NCBI GenBank assembly: GCA_029260875.1 | Contig: JAJDCL010000008.1 | Coordinates: 2,546 to 66,545, forward strand | From: Candidatus Saccharimonadota bacterium | GTDB lineage: Bacteria; Patescibacteriota; Saccharimonadia; Saccharimonadales; OFTM59 | Direction of reading: 5' to 3' | DNA length: 64,000 bases | Shown: positions 4,507 through 15,155 of the stretch, piece after piece | How positions within the stretch are numbered: position 1 is the first letter of the stretch | Layout of the letters: the number at the start of each line of letters is the position of its first letter | The notes under the pieces: generated by a model | The model's database searches: none | Told to the model about the DNA's origin: nothing | What the model saw: the letters and a program-made list of their open reading frames with translations, nothing else | Program-made: the position numbers and the translations under genes

Positions 4507-5754
4507 CTATTTGACCTTAATTAATGCGGGGTATTTTTTGCCTTTGAAAACCACCACGTAGCCTTCTGTGCTGGCAGACTTTAGTAGCGGAGTTTCACCC
4601 GACGCTATATCAATTAACTGGCTGCTTGTGATGGCTTTGCTAGCTATTAAATTACGTGCATCTGATTTACTGCTTGCAAGACCCGTACTTATTAACGCGT
4701 CGGCAATATTCGTGCCCTCGTTTACCTCAACATACGGAAGTTCACCTTCAAGTTGCTCAAAATCTTTTGCTGAAAATTCATGAAAATCACGACTAAATAG
4801 ACTTATGCTAATCTTTTTTTGTATTTCAGCCTGTTCATGGCCATGGACAACTTTTGTAACCTCGTAAGCCAAAGTTTTTTGGGCTAAACGCTGCCCTGGA
4901 TTTGCGCGGAACTCAGTCATAATTGATTGGATCTTGTCATGGTCTAGGAGCGTATATATCTTAAGGTAATCTTCAGCGCTTTCGTCGTCTACATTCAGCC
5001 AGAACTGGTAGAACTTAAATGAACTCGTCATGGCTTGGTCCAGCCATATTGCCCCTTCTTCACTTTTGCCAAACTTTTTACCGGTAGACTTATTGATGAT
5101 TAATGGAGCAGTCCAGACGTGTGCTTCTTTACCCGTAATCCGCCTAACAAGCTCTACCCCCGCAATGCTATTTCCCCACTGGTCTGACCCCGCCACCTGA
5201 AGCGTCACACCCAGTTCTTTAAACAACTGCAAAAAGTCGTAGCCTTGTATTAATGCATAGCTAAACTCGGCATAGCTTATGCCTGCTCCGTTATCTTTTA
5301 GACGCTCCTGCACAAACTCTCTACCAAGCATCTGTCGCATCGGTACGTGTTTTCCGATTTCGCGTAAAAATTGCAGATAGCCCATGCTCTTAAACCATTC
5401 AAGGTTATCAACAAGCTTAAAGTCTAGCCCCTTAAAAATTTTCTCGTACTGGCTTACTATGGCTTTTTTATTGGCTTCAATTTCGTTCAAAGGCTTCAGA
5501 GTCCGCTCCTCACTCTTGCCATCAGGATCACCAATCATGCCAGTTGCACCGCCTATAAGCAACACCGCCTTGTGCCCATGCGAAATAAAATGCCTAACCA
5601 TCATTGCCATTGCTAGATGCCCGATAGTCATTGAGGGAGCACTAGGATCAACTCCCCAATAAAAAGTGAGTGGCGCCTTATCAAGCTCCTTAATATCTTT
5701 AAGCGTCGTTTGGTTAACGAAGCCACGCCAGGTGAGTTCTTCGGATAATTTCAT
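4507..5754 (-). CDS. tyrS: tyrosine--tRNA ligase
   Basis: 415 aa. HIGH-type motif (PSMTIGHL), KMSKS-type motif KFGKS and a C-terminal S4-like domain. Confidence 0.95.
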   Translation of the reverse strand: MKLSEELTWRGFVNQTTLKDIKELDKAPLTFYWGVDPSAPSMTIGHLAMAMMVRHFISHGHKAVLLIGGATGMIGDPDGKSEERTLKPLNEIEANKKAIVSQYEKIFKGLDFKLVDNLEWFKSMGYLQFLREIGKHVPMRQMLGREFVQERLKDNGAGISYAEFSYALIQGYDFLQLFKELGVTLQVAGSDQWGNSIAGVELVRRITGKEAHVWTAPLIINKSTGKKFGKSEEGAIWLDQAMTSSFKFYQFWLNVDDESAEDYLKIYTLLDHDKIQSIMTEFRANPGQRLAQKTLAYEVTKVVHGHEQAEIQKKISISLFSRDFHEFSAKDFEQLEGELPYVEVNEGTNIADALISTGLASSKSDARNLIASKAITSSQLIDIASGETPLLKSASTEGYVVVFKGKKYPALIKVK

Positions 5755-8884: not shown

Positions 8885-10228
8885 TTAGTCCTTTTGCAGA
8901 AAAGTATTGAGCGCACTTCTTATGTCTGGAACTCCTAGATATTTTGTAAGTTTTTTGTCTTTTAACTGAGGCCCTATGCATAATTCAAAACCAAGTTTTT
9001 TAGCCTCAGACACTCGTTTTTCAATCAGCGGAACATGACGAACTTCTCCACTAAGGCCTACCTCACCAAAGACCACTGCGTTTTTCTTAAGCTGTAAGCC
9101 CTTTGCTGCCGATCCTATAGCCATACAGATAGCCAGGTCAGCCGCTGGCTCGTTCAGGCGTATACCCCCGACAATATTTATATAAATGTCTTGGTCAGCC
9201 AGATTAAGCTTTGTGCGACGCTCCAGCATAGCCACCAATAGGTTAACTCTGTTTAGGTCAATCCCGCTAGCCGTACGTTTCGGGTAGCCATAGCTTGTAC
9301 GATTTACTAGAGCCTGGACTTCTACAAGTAATGGCCGCGTTCCTTCTATAGTTGCCAACACAACTGATCCGTCGGTTATCTGTCTTTCTGCTAGCAAAGC
9401 CGCAGAGGGGTTTCTTACCGGCACCAGGCCCTTATCGGTCATCTCAAAGATACCAGCTTCATTTGTGGTACCATAACGGTTTTTCATCGCCCGAAGCACC
9501 TTAAACCCACCATAACGATCACCTTCTAGCTGCAACACAACGTCTACTACATGTTCCAATACTTTTGGGCCTGCAATTGAGCCTTCTTTAGTTACGTGGC
9601 CCACTAAAATAAGCGATGTGTTGGTTTTTTTAGCTGCTGTCGTTAGTAATTGTGTGCTGTTGGTTATCTGGCTTACTGTGCCTGCGGCTGAAGCTATATC
9701 TTTGCAACTAAGCGTTTGTATGGAATCAACAATAACAGCTTCGTATTTTCCGCCGGCAATTGTCGCGGCTATATCGTCAGCTATTGTACTAGTGGCAAGC
9801 TGGAGCCCTTCGGTGCTCGTGCCTAAACGTTCTGCCCTGATGCCAATTTGGTGTGATGATTCTTCGCCACTAACATATAGGACCTTATGCGCTTTCGCTA
9901 AATTATATGCAACCTGTAGCAATAACGTGCTTTTGCCTATGCCAGGCTGACCCGCGATTAAGTTAACACTGCCAGCGACTAAGCCCCCGCCCAATACATC
10001 GTCAACTTCAGCTATATTTGAGACAAGCCTTTTGTGGTCATGCTTAATAGAGGCTGTAACATCTTCTGCTAGAAGGATGTTGCCCCCGCTTTTTAACTTT
10101 CCCTGCTTAATAACAAGCTGTTCCTCCAGTGTGTTCCACTGCGCACAGGCAGGACAACGACCACTCCATGTACCATGCTCCGCTCCACAATTCGTGCAGA
10201 CGTATCTTACTGTGTCTCTTTTAGCCAT
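8885..10228 (-). CDS. radA: DNA repair protein RadA/Sms
   Basis: 447 aa. Zinc finger CTNCGAEHGTWSGRCPAC, Walker A GQPGIGKST, KNRYG motif and a Lon-like C-terminal domain. Confidence 0.95.
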   Translation of the reverse strand: MAKRDTVRYVCTNCGAEHGTWSGRCPACAQWNTLEEQLVIKQGKLKSGGNILLAEDVTASIKHDHKRLVSNIAEVDDVLGGGLVAGSVNLIAGQPGIGKSTLLLQVAYNLAKAHKVLYVSGEESSHQIGIRAERLGTSTEGLQLATSTIADDIAATIAGGKYEAVIVDSIQTLSCKDIASAAGTVSQITNSTQLLTTAAKKTNTSLILVGHVTKEGSIAGPKVLEHVVDVVLQLEGDRYGGFKVLRAMKNRYGTTNEAGIFEMTDKGLVPVRNPSAALLAERQITDGSVVLATIEGTRPLLVEVQALVNRTSYGYPKRTASGIDLNRVNLLVAMLERRTKLNLADQDIYINIVGGIRLNEPAADLAICMAIGSAAKGLQLKKNAVVFGEVGLSGEVRHVPLIEKRVSEAKKLGFELCIGPQLKDKKLTKYLGVPDIRSALNTFLQKD

Positions 10229-10272
10229 ACAGCAAGTTTACACAAATTCTTGTAATGAAGCATTAGATAATA

Positions 10273-11235
10273 CTAAAGCGACGACTGGTGGCTATCAATA
10301 GCATTAATCAGATCTTTCTGCTCAACGGCTAGTGAATTATGTTCCTCTACCATCTGATTCATTTTTTGAACTTTTGCGTTGTAATCTGTAATAAGTTTAC
10401 GATATTGCCCAACAAGATTATTATATGGACCGACCCCCGCGTTATATTCTTCTGTGCGACCTTGCTGTCTTAGTCTACTTAGCTGTTCTGCGTCGGCATT
10501 TAAGTTACTCTCAAATTTATCAATTTCTATTTTTTGCTGTCTTAGCTCATTCTCTATTGCCGCTATTTGCTCGCTTAGCAGCCTAATACGATTTAACTTT
10601 TCTGTAAACACAGCTTCGTATTGCTCGGAAAACGCAACTACCGCTTGTCTATTAGTGAAGTATCGCTGATAGTAGGACTCTAAATCTGAAGGCAGCACCC
10701 TTACTTCTGTGGCAAGAATAGAATGAAGTTCATTGCTTACCACAGTTCGGTCGCGCTCCTCGTAAGAGGCTACAACCTTCTTTATGCGCTCATCATTTAG
10801 ATTATCAAATGCGTTCTTGGTCATACGATCAACAGCCTGCTTTTCGGATGCACTTAGTCTGTCGTAGGCTGCGTGCAGCATTTCATGGGCTGATGTTACT
10901 TCCTCTACGCCTTCTAGCCGGGGATCTTCTACATCAAAGATATATATTGACCTATGTGTGATATAACACCCGAGTACTATAGTTTGCTCAAATCCTGCAC
11001 AATTTACATTAAATGCAGTTCTGTCATTAAGCTGCGGGGCATGTACATAAAACAGCTTTCGCCCCTCATCGGTCATCTGTGTATGCTCTGTGAGCTCAGC
11101 AATCCGCGCTGGAGGCGTATAGCCTCTTAGGCGCAACCAGTCCGAGATGTTCTGATGCTGCCATAGCAGCACGAAAGGTAATGCAGCTACGACTACTATG
11201 AATAGTGTTTTTAAGATTCTCCGAAGCGCGTGCAT
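10273..11235 (-). CDS. membrane-anchored putative zinc metalloprotease-like protein with C-terminal coiled coil
   Basis: 320 aa. N-terminal TM helix, HExxH motif (SAHEMLHAAY) and a long heptad-rich C-terminal half. No named family recognised. Confidence 0.45.
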   Translation of the reverse strand: MHALRRILKTLFIVVVAALPFVLLWQHQNISDWLRLRGYTPPARIAELTEHTQMTDEGRKLFYVHAPQLNDRTAFNVNCAGFEQTIVLGCYITHRSIYIFDVEDPRLEGVEEVTSAHEMLHAAYDRLSASEKQAVDRMTKNAFDNLNDERIKKVVASYEERDRTVVSNELHSILATEVRVLPSDLESYYQRYFTNRQAVVAFSEQYEAVFTEKLNRIRLLSEQIAAIENELRQQKIEIDKFESNLNADAEQLSRLRQQGRTEEYNAGVGPYNNLVGQYRKLITDYNAKVQKMNQMVEEHNSLAVEQKDLINAIDSHQSSL

Positions 11236-11326: not shown

Positions 11327-13819
11327 CTAAACAGCAACCGCTTCAGTGACTGACTCGTAGGTAAGAGCACCATCACTAACGCTAACTCTTACGATCTCGC
11401 CCTTACTGTATCTATCATTTAGTAATTCGCTGGCAATATGGTCTTCAATAGTATCTTGTATAAGCCGTCGCATGGGCCTTACTCCGTTATGGGCATCGTA
11501 TCCATTTTGGAGCAAATATCTTTTAGCAGACGTGCTGACGTTTAAACCCAAACCGTGCTTAATAAGCCGATTTCTAAGCTCATCAATCTGCAAATCTAAG
11601 ATCTTCATGACATCTTTACGAGTCAAAGCGCGGAATACGATCGTCTTATCAATACGATTTATTAACTCTGGCCTCATTAGTTTTTTAAGCTCATCGTGTA
11701 CCTTGCTTTTGTTGGCAGCGTGCAGGGCGTCAAGGTCTTTGAGCTCCTTATTGTGGACAGCGCGAAAGCCAAGGTTAGCTTCTTTTTGCAGCTTTTCAGC
11801 GCCAATATTACTTGTCATTATTATGATTGCATTTGTAAAATCTATTTTGCGACCTTTTGCATCAGTCAGAACGCCATCTTCCAGTATTTGGAGCAGCATG
11901 TTGAAGACCTCAGGGTGAGCCTTCTCAATTTCATCAAACAACACGAGGCTGTACGGCTGACGTCTAATCTTATCCGTTAATTGGCCGCCTTCATCATATC
12001 CCACATATCCAGCTGGCGCACCGACAAGACGTGCTGCGGTATGTCGCTCACTAAATTCGCTCATGTCTATTTTCACAAGCGATTCTTCGCCACCAAAAAA
12101 TTCGCGCGCTAGAACCCGCGCAAGCTCAGTTTTTCCTACCCCCGTAGGCCCCAGAAATATAAATGAGCCTATCGGTCTCGTGCCCGCACTAATCCCCACT
12201 CGGTTACGACGGACAGCACCAGAAACTGCTTTGACAGCTTCATTCTGACCTATAACATGCTTGCTAAGACTTTTCTCTAGATTCAACAAATATTTAGCTT
12301 CAGCTCGTATAACCTTTTTTACAGGCACACCTGTCATACGCGCTATGACCTCGGCAATATCGTCACTTGTCATTATCAGCTTATTGGCAGCCTTATCGCC
12401 AACCTGTAGAGTTTTGATCTCTTCGCTAATTTGTATGGCACGCTGCTTGTAGCTTGCAGCTTTTTCATAATCGCCGATTTCTGCAGCTTCTTCCTTGCGA
12501 ACATTACAAAGCTTTAGTTCCTTCTGAAGCTTGCGTAGTTGAGGTGGTGTTTTGCCTTTGTCAACTCTTAGGTGAGCCGACGTCTCGTCAAGCAGGTCAA
12601 TTGCTTTGTCAGGCATAAACCGATCATTAATGTAACGGCTTGCCAATTTGACAGTGTCTTCTAAAACTTCATCGCTAACCTTAACCCCATGAAATTCTTC
12701 ATAATGTTTTCGTAGCCCCTTCAATATAGAAATTGTCTCAGATATGGTAGTTTCTGGCACTTGAATAGGCTGAAACCGTCTTTCTAGTGCAGCGTCCTTT
12801 TCAACATGCTTTGTATATTCATCAGTGGTAGTTGCACCAATGACTTGGATTTTTCCACGAGCCAGTACTGGTTTTAGGATGTTGCCAGCATCCATTGCGC
12901 CCTCAGCAGCACCAGCGCCCACAATCAAATGCAACTCGTCAATGAAAATTATGGTTATTTTATCGTTTTTGAGCTCTGACATTACTTTCTTTAGTCGTTC
13001 CTCAAATTCGCCTCGGTATTTAGTCCCAGCGATCATGCCGGCTAAATCCAACATCACAATTCTTTTATCAAGCAGGCTATCCGGAACATCTTCTGTGACT
13101 ATTCTCTGCGCCAAGCCTTCTACAATAGCTGTCTTACCGACTCCAGGTTCGCCGATGAGCACAGGGTTATTCTTTGTGCGCCTGTTTAAAATTGTTATAA
13201 CTCTACGTATTTGCGGGTCACGCCCCACTACCGGGTCCAGTTCTCCGCGCCGAGCTTGTGCAGTCAGGTCGGTACCAAAAAAATCTAGTGCCGTTTTACG
13301 CTGTTTCTTTGTCCTACTTATGTTTTCTGAAGCATGCTCGCTCTCATCTTCGTATTGCTGACGGTTTAAAAACTGCTCAAGCTCACCCAAAAGACTATCT
13401 AAAGACACATTCATATCCCGCAGTAAGACCGTTGCCCTGGAATTCTTTTGTTTAAGAATGCTGTATAGGATATGTTCCGTCCCGCAAAACTCCTGATTAA
13501 AATCTTGGGCAATGTCATAGGCCATGTTTAGAGTTAATTTGGCCGTTTCACTTAGCCCTTTTGCCCCCATATTAATTACTAGAGTTTTAGGCGTAAGATT
13601 CAGGGCTAATCGTGCTCGGTCTAGGGTCACACCAATCCCTTCTAACATCTTAGCGCCGATACTTGAATCTTGGGCCAATAAACCAAGCAACAAGTGTTCA
13701 GTGCCAATATAAGCACTACCGAAGCTGCGCGCTATTGAGTCGGCATGCTTAAGGCTCTGCAGCGCGTTACCTGTGAGATGATTCAAAAAATCCTGAAATT
13801 CAGATGATTGTGGCATCAT
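11327..13819 (-). CDS. clpC: ATP-dependent Clp protease ATP-binding subunit ClpC (class I Hsp100 AAA+)
   Basis: 830 aa. Two Clp_N repeats, Walker A GEPGVGKTA and GPTGVGKTELA, a short UVR-like linker (GDYEKAASYKQRA) and an LGF ClpP-docking-type loop. Confidence 0.88.
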   Translation of the reverse strand: MMPQSSEFQDFLNHLTGNALQSLKHADSIARSFGSAYIGTEHLLLGLLAQDSSIGAKMLEGIGVTLDRARLALNLTPKTLVINMGAKGLSETAKLTLNMAYDIAQDFNQEFCGTEHILYSILKQKNSRATVLLRDMNVSLDSLLGELEQFLNRQQYEDESEHASENISRTKKQRKTALDFFGTDLTAQARRGELDPVVGRDPQIRRVITILNRRTKNNPVLIGEPGVGKTAIVEGLAQRIVTEDVPDSLLDKRIVMLDLAGMIAGTKYRGEFEERLKKVMSELKNDKITIIFIDELHLIVGAGAAEGAMDAGNILKPVLARGKIQVIGATTTDEYTKHVEKDAALERRFQPIQVPETTISETISILKGLRKHYEEFHGVKVSDEVLEDTVKLASRYINDRFMPDKAIDLLDETSAHLRVDKGKTPPQLRKLQKELKLCNVRKEEAAEIGDYEKAASYKQRAIQISEEIKTLQVGDKAANKLIMTSDDIAEVIARMTGVPVKKVIRAEAKYLLNLEKSLSKHVIGQNEAVKAVSGAVRRNRVGISAGTRPIGSFIFLGPTGVGKTELARVLAREFFGGEESLVKIDMSEFSERHTAARLVGAPAGYVGYDEGGQLTDKIRRQPYSLVLFDEIEKAHPEVFNMLLQILEDGVLTDAKGRKIDFTNAIIIMTSNIGAEKLQKEANLGFRAVHNKELKDLDALHAANKSKVHDELKKLMRPELINRIDKTIVFRALTRKDVMKILDLQIDELRNRLIKHGLGLNVSTSAKRYLLQNGYDAHNGVRPMRRLIQDTIEDHIASELLNDRYSKGEIVRVSVSDGALTYESVTEAVAV

Positions 13820-13876
13820 ACGCCAAAATACCCTTCTTTATCTTATAGGTGCAGCGAGGTTTCCGCCACTATTACA

Positions 13877-13904
13877 ATAATATCATTTGGCACTCAAAGG
13901 TCAA
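13877..13904 (-). promoter_or_regulatory. putative clpC promoter (TTGACC-N16-TGaTATTAT)
   Basis: On the minus strand: -35 TTGACC (13904-13899), a 16-nt spacer ending in TGa, and -10 TATTAT (13882-13877). This lies about 55 nt upstream of the ATG at 13819. Confidence 0.5.
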
Positions 13905-13913
13905 GAGTGCCAA
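13887..13913. promoter_or_regulatory. CIRCE-like inverted repeat (HrcA-type operator)
   Basis: TTGGCACTC-N9-GAGTGCCAA is a perfect 9-bp dyad. It matches the CIRCE consensus TTAGCACTC-N9-GAGTGCTAA at 16/18 arm positions, and the two deviations are dyad-symmetric. Confidence 0.7.
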
Positions 13914-13921
13914 ATTCACTG

Positions 13922-13972
13922 GCTCAGTCAACAAACGTGAGACAGGCGTAGTTTGTAGGTAGTTGACTGAGC
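13922..13972. repeat. 11-bp perfect inverted repeat (GCTCAGTCAAC ... GTTGACTGAGC) with a 29-nt spacer
   Basis: Arms at 13922-13932 and 13962-13972, with an inner ACAAAC/GTTTGT pairing. It sits between the nusA stop and the CIRCE element and has no U-tract. Confidence 0.6.
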
Positions 13973-13994
13973 TGCCATATTATTACTATGGCTA

Positions 13995-15155
13995 CTATTC
14001 CTTGTCAGTACCATGCTGTTCAATTGCTTCAAGCAAGGAGCTTTCAAGCTCTGTCTTCTTTTTCAACTTTTGCACGACTGGCTTAGCTTCCGTTTTATCA
14101 GGCTCCTGAGCAGCATCAGATTCCCCTATAATATCAATCTCGTAGCCCGTTAACTTACTAGCCAGACGAACATTTTGCCCCCCCTTGCCTATGGCTATGC
14201 TGAGCTGGTCTTCAGGGACGATCACCCTTGCTTTATTACTCTTCGGGTCTATCTCAACCTTTGAAACACGTGTCGGGCTTAGTGCATTAGTGATATAGGT
14301 GGCTAAATCATCACTCCACACTACAATATCAATCTTTTCTTGCTCTCCCGTTTCACTCATTACAGCATTAACACGTGTACCATGACCGCCAACAAAAGTA
14401 CCCACAGGGTCAACACCCTGCACCGTGCTGTGAACGGCAAGCTTTGTACGCACACCAGCCTCTCTTGCGAGGCCTTTTATTTCAACTGCTCCGTTTTCCA
14501 TCTCAGGGACCTCAGCACGGAAAAGCCATTCAATAAACTGAGTATTGCCGCGAGAAACCACCAGCTGGGGACCACGGAATCCGCGCTCTACATCCTTTAG
14601 AAAAACCTTCAGCCGTTGGCCGGGGAAGTATCGCTCGCCTTGAATTTGCTCACTGCGGGGCATTATCCCTTGAGCTTTGCCAAGATCAATCCTTACAATA
14701 TTGCCCTCAACACGACCTACGATACCGTTAATTACAGTGCCTATTTTGTCCTCGTATTCGTTCATAATAATTTCACGCTCTGCTTCTCGTAACCTTTGTA
14801 AAATCACCTGTTTGGCGGTTTGTGCAGCAACACGGCCAAAGTCTTCAATATTTTCCTTGACCTCAATCGTCTCGCCAACTTTGGCATTCTTTTTCATTAC
14901 TGACGCGTCTTTGTAGCTTATTTCAAAGTTTTGGTCCTTTACAGAGTCAACGATTTCCTTCGTTATATAGGCTGTTAAGTCGCCGGTGTTGAGGTTCATA
15001 CTGACCCTAACTTCCTGCTCGCGCTCACCATAATCACGTCTGTAAGCAGCAGCTAATGCTTGCTCTACAACTTCCTGTACTGACTCTTCTGGCAAATTTT
15101 TCTCTTCAGCAATTGTCTTAATGGCTGTTGCCAACTGTTTCATATCTAAGTCCAT
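13995..15155 (-). CDS. nusA: transcription termination/antitermination factor NusA
   Basis: 386 aa. NusA N-terminal domain, S1 domain and two KH domains (IAIGKGGQNVRLASKLTG). AGGAG Shine-Dalgarno 6 nt upstream. Confidence 0.95.
   Translation of the reverse strand: MDLDMKQLATAIKTIAEEKNLPEESVQEVVEQALAAAYRRDYGEREQEVRVSMNLNTGDLTAYITKEIVDSVKDQNFEISYKDASVMKKNAKVGETIEVKENIEDFGRVAAQTAKQVILQRLREAEREIIMNEYEDKIGTVINGIVGRVEGNIVRIDLGKAQGIMPRSEQIQGERYFPGQRLKVFLKDVERGFRGPQLVVSRGNTQFIEWLFRAEVPEMENGAVEIKGLAREAGVRTKLAVHSTVQGVDPVGTFVGGHGTRVNAVMSETGEQEKIDIVVWSDDLATYITNALSPTRVSKVEIDPKSNKARVIVPEDQLSIAIGKGGQNVRLASKLTGYEIDIIGESDAAQEPDKTEAKPVVQKLKKKTELESSLLEAIEQHGTDKE

Follow-up and report, generated by a model that had tools for sequence, protein, structure and literature searches.

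A CIRCE-type dyad fused with the clpC promoter in environmental-type Saccharibacteria

We analysed a 64-kb stretch of DNA (the window) in which a perfect inverted repeat overlaps the predicted promoter of clpC. The dyad is probably a CIRCE operator, the site of the repressor HrcA, fused with a sigma-70-type clpC promoter. A CIRCE occurs at the orthologous position in 81/81 related loci with upstream sequence (77 from GTDB genomes and four from metagenomes), or 82/82 including the window. This gives strong comparative support to an earlier sequence-only reading, which had placed a CIRCE-type operator within the clpC promoter. Environmental-type loci carry the dyad in 82/82 cases, and in the clade with oral taxon 488 the count is 0/7; to judge from these loci the CIRCE-clpC promoter unit is characteristic of environmental-type Saccharibacteria and deleted in that clade.

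The dyad, its promoter and the neighbouring genes

The features of the region are listed below.

13995..15155, minus strand: nusA, the upstream gene (TIGR01953 match, 2e-111; same synteny in relatives)
13974-13992, minus strand: second hairpin past the nusA stop, with a 6-bp stem and no U-tract
13922..13972, minus strand: hairpin just past the nusA stop, with an 11-bp stem, a long loop and no U-tract
13887..13913, minus strand: CIRCE-type inverted repeat, with TTGGCACTC at 13913-13905, spacer TTGACCTTT at 13904-13896 and GAGTGCCAA at 13895-13887
13899..13904, minus strand: predicted -35 hexamer TTGACC, at CIRCE spacer positions 1-6, from an independent consensus scan
13877..13885, minus strand: predicted extended -10 TGaTATTAT, 16 nt past the -35; the promoter spacer is mostly the downstream CIRCE arm
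13851..13869, minus strand: predicted stem-loop of 7 bp with which the clpC leader begins
11327..13819, minus strand: clpC, encoding an 830-aa ClpC-type AAA+ unfoldase (assigned from its domains and LGF loop)
10273-11235, minus strand: gene for a 320-aa membrane HExxH protein, downstream of clpC
8885-10228, minus strand: radA, downstream of the 320-aa gene and completing the downstream block 8885..11235

The dyad sits in the 175-nt gap between nusA and clpC, both of which are on the minus strand, and is separated from the clpC ATG by 67 nt. As written, positions 13887-13913 read TTGGCACTC-AAAGGTCAA-GAGTGCCAA, a perfect 9-bp dyad with a 9-nt spacer. Its arms, TTGGCACTC-N9-GAGTGCCAA, agree with the canonical TTAGCACTC-N9-GAGTGCTAA at 16/18 positions, so that the dyad, its spacing and its match to CIRCE were all reproduced as first described. 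This dyad is the sole match in the window with up to three mismatches allowed. Dinucleotide-preserving shuffles of the window gave a mean of 0.01 matches, with a match in one shuffle of 100.

A consensus scan of the minus strand placed a promoter overlapping the dyad: TTGACC at 13904-13899, a 16-nt spacer and TATTAT at 13882-13877 with a TG extension, for 10/12 hexamer matches. Along this strand the sequence runs TTGGCACTC, TTGACC, TTT, GAGTGCCAA, A, TG, A, TATTAT. The end of the -10 is 57 nt from the clpC ATG; the sequence-only reading had drawn the same -35, spacing and extended -10 and put them about 55 nt from the ATG. The upstream CIRCE arm lies directly 5' of the -35 and the downstream arm within the -35/-10 spacer. 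From this geometry, a protein dimer bound to the dyad would have to occlude the -35 region.

Transcription of clpC would start near 13870, directly ahead of the predicted leader stem-loop. A stem occupies this place in the leader of many relatives; AGCGA-N8-14-UCGCU is a frequent form, and compensatory variants include GCAGC/GCUGC and GGCAC/GUGCC. Folding statistics for this stem are weak, with a median z of -0.9 and z below -1.5 in 31% of loci. On the other side of the dyad, the two hairpins between 13922 and 13992 may be nusA 3'-end structure.

In the 830-aa product of clpC, two Clp_N repeats accompany two AAA modules and a short middle domain. An LGF loop at residues 683-685 occupies the position of the ClpP-docking tripeptide, which identifies the protein as ClpC-type and not ClpB-type. 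The 320-aa protein encoded downstream combines a transmembrane helix at its N-terminus with an HEMLH (HExxH) motif and a long coiled coil at its C-terminus; neither Pfam nor NCBIfam gave a family match. These three features also ruled it out as a divergent HrcA, for which it had been a candidate. The gene is kept between clpC and radA in all Saccharibacteria loci (33-42% identity) and in Southlakia epibionticum, as SEML1_0511, and the order nusA-clpC-HExxH gene-radA is conserved in relatives. We found no terminator-like site from clpC to radA. Since none parts the 320-aa gene from either neighbour, this gene may share the CIRCE-controlled transcript, and it and radA are probably co-transcribed with clpC.

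Distribution of the dyad across Saccharibacteria

The window has a G+C content near 45%, and ClpC homologues 79-89% identical to its own are named Candidatus Saccharibacteria or Saccharimonadales bacterium. The sequence-only reading had spoken of another reduced lineage; these homologues and the genome scan described below identify it as Saccharibacteria (TM7, Patescibacteria/CPR).

A metagenome scan with the whole ClpC sequence was swamped by universal Clp motifs and yielded four close syntenic relatives, with ClpC 81, 74, 62 and 61% identical to that of the window. In each of these, a CIRCE-like dyad precedes clpC by about 90-110 nt. We then selected ClpC N-terminal peptides that are conserved in the 120 Saccharibacteria homologues listed and absent from 76 distant ClpCs. 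The N-terminal fragment alignment, scanned against GTDB species genomes, returned 80 species-level loci, mostly from Saccharibacteria, Saccharimonadales and Patescibacteria MAGs. A dyad scoring 14-18/18 against TTAGCACTC-N9-GAGTGCTAA lies just upstream of clpC in 77/80. In the remaining three the contig ends before the expected position, and the dyad is thus found in 77/77 loci with upstream sequence.

Many of the 81 orthologous sites are closer to the canonical CIRCE than the window's own: 44 match at 18/18 positions, 21 at 17, 12 at 16, three at 15 and one at 14. The distance to the first in-frame ATG has a median of 65 nt. Across about 1.5 Mb of Saccharibacteria DNA, 84 sites scored at least 14/18; the clpC sites account for 81 of them, and the remaining three reach only 14/18. 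The window site combines, as a CIRCE should, a repeat with the exact 9-nt spacer, a location in the promoter of a proteostasis gene and sequence-conserved arms.

Arm positions T2, G4-C9, G19-C24 and A26 are invariant in 82/82 sites; G4-C9 doubled as a criterion for picking the sites, and an unconstrained scan chose the same ones. Variation in the arms falls on wobble positions 1, 3, 25 and 27 (T/C, A/G, T/C and A/G, respectively). In the spacer, positions 1-6 are constrained by the -35 and positions 15-18 of the element are variable. An invariant core combined with non-compensatory outer variation points to a DNA sequence recognised by a protein, not to an RNA stem.

The two departures of the window dyad from the consensus had been offered as a further argument, as they preserve symmetry. 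They do fall on both arms, and pairing is kept. They carry no special signal, however: positions 3 and 25 are wobble positions throughout the lineage and vary almost independently. Over the 82 sites, position 3 is A in 70 and G in 12, and position 25 is T in 62 and C in 20. The pairs are AT in 55, AC in 15, GT in seven and GC in five, against 2.9 GC pairs expected under independence. Dyad-symmetric co-variation was rejected on these counts, which are close to independence and include many non-pairing combinations. As far as the aligned sites can tell, the CIRCE reading does not need the symmetry argument.

The promoter is conserved along with the arms. A -35 of the form TTGACN or TTGCAN stands at spacer offset 0 in 77/82 CIRCE sites. 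A -10 of the form TAnnnT follows 16-18 nt past the -35 in 80/81 relatives and 19 nt past it in the remaining one; the commonest variants are TATTAT (26), TATCAT (17), TATAAT (11) and TATACT (9), and a TG extension precedes the -10 in 43/81. Hexamers 16-18 nt apart and kept at orthologous positions, as expected of a sigma-70-type promoter, are thus found at clpC. In four loci (L004, L258, L263 and L270) TTGAC lies 2-4 nt deeper in the spacer and the -10 has moved by an equal distance. This correlated shift is good evidence that the two hexamers act jointly as a promoter. Read from the alignment, these patterns show that purifying selection has acted very strongly on both arms and promoter elements throughout the lineage.

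One metagenome locus, L006, has the gene order of the relatives (pepN-nusA-clpC-325aa-radA-PBP1A) and a ClpC 50% identical to that of the window. It carries no dyad, and its nusA-clpC gap of about 40 nt contains a ribosome-binding site as its sole content. ClpC homologues of this type form a large sister clade with human-associated members, among them 'Candidatus Saccharibacteria bacterium oral taxon 488' (CP047920.1); a single ENA-derived cluster contains 3,472 member sequences. Six further loci of this clade (ClpC 64-71% identical to that of L006) have nusA-clpC gaps of 33-73 nt, and no site scoring at least 13/18 was found anywhere in up to 22 kb around them. The nusA-clpC junctions of L006 and L310-L316 (e.g. 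L310 9960-10001) show the ribosome-binding site AAAGGAGG, no CIRCE and no promoter.

CIRCE, promoter and spacer DNA are missing together from this clade, indicating that operator and promoter are gained or lost as one unit. Here clpC would be transcribed from upstream. The absence of the CIRCE could represent a single loss tied to host association. The ClpC of this clade is also unusually diverged, at 50% identity to the window's versus about 59% for NusA and RadA.

The candidate regulator and competing explanations

An NCBIfam/Pfam scan of the approximately 60 window ORFs found no hrcA, groES, groEL, dnaK, grpE, dnaJ or ctsR. Searches by tblastn of the window and 85 Saccharibacteria loci, with chaperone, HrcA and CtsR queries from E. 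coli and B. subtilis, gave no matches either. This is explained by the synteny near clpC, which is conserved and never includes these genes. Neither ctsR nor mcsB was found in the window or the 85 related loci. The CtsR tandem heptad RGTCAAA-NAN-RGTCAAA has no match between nusA and clpC with up to three mismatches allowed, and its five matches elsewhere in the window are no more than chance would give (6.8 expected). We excluded a CtsR operator at the clpC site, as the intergenic region holds no heptad repeat.

The cultured Saccharibacterium Southlakia epibionticum ML1 has an annotated regulator of the required kind. SEML1_0720 is assigned to K03705, with PF01628 (HrcA C-terminal) and PF03444 (HrcA DNA-binding), and has the ECOD domains of Thermotoga maritima HrcA (1stz) (PMC10633639). 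At 729 bp it encodes a short form of about 242 aa, which by its ECOD assignment has no counterpart of the inserted dimerisation domain of T. maritima HrcA (PMC10633639). The gene lies immediately upstream of grpE and dnaK and is essential in Tn-seq (Wang et al. 2023, PMC10633639); groES and groEL of this strain are SEML1_0799 and SEML1_0798 (PMC10633639). This annotation indicates that HrcA exists in the phylum. The strain that carries SEML1_0720, the only documented Saccharibacteria HrcA, was isolated from the human mouth; the oral-taxon-488 clade, by contrast, is without the clpC CIRCE.

The clpC locus of S. epibionticum consists of nusA (0513), clpC (0512), a 999-bp hypothetical gene (0511) and radA (0510), with a nusA-clpC gap of 196 nt (PMC10633639). 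Its gene table shows no neighbours shared between the window genes and hrcA or groES. The words CtsR, McsB and HspR are absent from the S. epibionticum gene tables (PMC10633639). The collapsed, single-repressor heat-shock regulon suggested by the sequence-only reading may be a reasonable extension, its basis being the absence of these words from one gene table. TM7x transcriptome papers contained nothing usable on clpC or chaperone co-regulation, and full-text literature searches turned up no publication that brings HrcA or CIRCE together with Saccharibacteria, Patescibacteria or CPR.

We infer that HrcA binds the dyad, that binding represses clpC and that heat or proteotoxic stress induces it; the window's genome would then encode an HrcA that acts on this site. 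A bound HrcA dimer would cover the -35 and the spacer DNA and keep RNA polymerase off. Control of HrcA by chaperonin titration is established in Bacillus subtilis. In the same manner, unfolded proteins would titrate the chaperonin that keeps HrcA active, and HrcA would leave the operator. With HrcA gone, clpC would be transcribed, probably with the HExxH membrane protein gene and radA.

Three other explanations were weighed. The dyad might be the operator of some different regulator, for instance a winged-helix protein unrelated to HrcA whose site has become the same by convergence, or it might be bound by HrcA and serve activation. The lack of hrcA among the window's ORFs and the truncated form of SEML1_0720 give this idea some room. 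It is nevertheless improbable, given that 44/81 orthologous sites are letter-perfect canonical CIRCE and that an operator lying over the -35 and the promoter spacer has the geometry of a repressor site. Wherever CIRCE has been studied, the protein known to bind it is HrcA.

We give still less credence to an RNA-level hairpin acting on nusA read-through transcripts as a terminator, attenuator or mRNA-destabilising element. The dyad does fold as an 11-bp stem (-16.8 kcal/mol) 82 nt past the nusA stop codon, and in B. subtilis a CIRCE within the transcript lowers mRNA stability. But no U-tract follows the dyad, and a terminator scan of the minus strand was negative there. The G+C-rich hairpin, U-tract and compensatory pairing that together mark an intrinsic terminator are not what the dyad offers: compensatory changes are absent, the core shows no change at all, and changes at the outer positions are not matched by their partners (e.g. 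15 A3/C25 sites). Its 'loop', moreover, keeps a -35 hexamer to which a -10 downstream corresponds, and such conservation would be meaningless for a terminator. A chance palindrome or a functionless fragment of a repeat element is barely conceivable. Only the small size of the element speaks for it, against 0.01 matches expected per window, an orthologous position kept in 81/81 loci with ClpC identity down to 61%, and a dyad that is not repeated elsewhere.

An HrcA-controlled operator-promoter thus remains our preferred reading, and the CIRCE-clpC element is almost certainly a working switch that extends a known kind. A broader evolutionary scenario is more speculative, and we hold it as possible though somewhat doubtful. 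In environmental Saccharibacteria, HrcA may have taken over the Clp branch through this composite element, with the short-form HrcA serving as the sole proteostasis regulator of genomes of roughly 1 Mb; the unit would then have been deleted wholesale in the oral-taxon-488 clade, fusing clpC to the nusA transcript. If this is true, loss of the unit marks, at the level of regulation, a shift from fluctuating environments to a host of constant temperature. The contrast in presence and absence (82/82 versus 0/7) can be tied to habitat. Almost nothing is known of transcriptional regulation in Patescibacteria/CPR, and the clpC CIRCE offers a concrete candidate link between regulator, operator and target. 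A native promoter-operator this compact (about 40 bp) and so extremely conserved could also become a stress-inducible promoter, as Saccharibacteria are now genetically tractable (PMC10633639).

Comparison with known heat-shock systems

The arrangement has clear counterparts in the classical CIRCE/HrcA system of groESL and hrcA-grpE-dnaK-dnaJ in Bacillus subtilis and many other bacteria. Common to both are TTAGCACTC-N9-GAGTGCTAA, its place in the 5' control region of a protein-quality-control gene and a repressor-type arrangement. The classical targets are chaperone operons, whereas the Saccharibacteria target is clpC. The two also differ in layout: in B. subtilis the promoter comes first and the CIRCE follows, near or past the transcription start, and at Saccharibacteria clpC the -35 is inside the CIRCE spacer.

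The sequence-only reading had drawn a parallel with Mollicutes, and correctly, as HrcA-controlled dnaK, clpB and lon promoters are reported there and HrcA is among the very few conserved transcription factors of the group (PMC5138195). This is likewise a genome-reduced lineage with CIRCE ahead of an AAA+ protease or unfoldase gene; there chaperone genes are controlled as well. The Mollicutes targets are clpB and lon, whereas in Saccharibacteria, from the unrelated phylum Patescibacteria, the target is a ClpP-docking ClpC; to our knowledge Mollicutes are without ClpC and ClpP. Given this precedent, and a mechanism that extends the well-understood CIRCE/HrcA system, a heat-shock specialist may find the element neat more than surprising.

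Control of clp genes by dedicated regulators is found in other lineages too. In Firmicutes, CtsR (ctsR-mcsA-mcsB-clpC-radA-disA) regulates the same gene, with the same clpC-radA linkage and the same heat-shock logic of a promoter-seated repressor. Its operator is a heptad repeat, whereas that of Saccharibacteria is a CIRCE with no CtsR heptad near clpC. Actinobacteria, a Terrabacteria lineage, likewise have dedicated transcriptional control of clp genes by ClgR, which activates clpC and clpP; ClgR differs in being an activator and in recognising a different motif.

A similar composite was seen further afield. On L072, a human-gut metagenome contig with a ClpC 43% identical to the window's, TTAGCACTC-ACCTATTGA-CAGTGCTAA at 105-131 lies about 90 nt ahead of the clpC ATG, with TTGACA straddling spacer and right arm and TATAGT 17 nt later. 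With this independent CIRCE-promoter composite, control of clpC by HrcA probably extends beyond Saccharibacteria.

CIRCE scans of IMG/VR returned, among the matches listed, no Saccharibacteria chaperone loci, one full-length HrcA locus (L085) and several phage-borne CIRCEs. Beside phage terminase and portal genes on L291 (8859-8905), CTGGCACTC-TTGCATTTT-GAGTGCCAA is followed by TATAAT and, 10 nt on, by a dnaJ start, and the -35 is in the spacer as at Saccharibacteria clpC. On L304 (941-961 and 4139-4159) and L303 (2587-2607), both classed viral, CIRCEs have TTGACA or TTGACT in the spacer and a -10 downstream; the ORFs they precede may be phage genes under host HrcA control. A further contig classed viral (L159, IMGVR_UViG_3300038675_000167) carries three tandem canonical CIRCE dyads 49 nt apart at 5424-5548, each followed by the palindrome GTTAGA-N4-TCTAAC, upstream of a TTGATT...TATAAT promoter.
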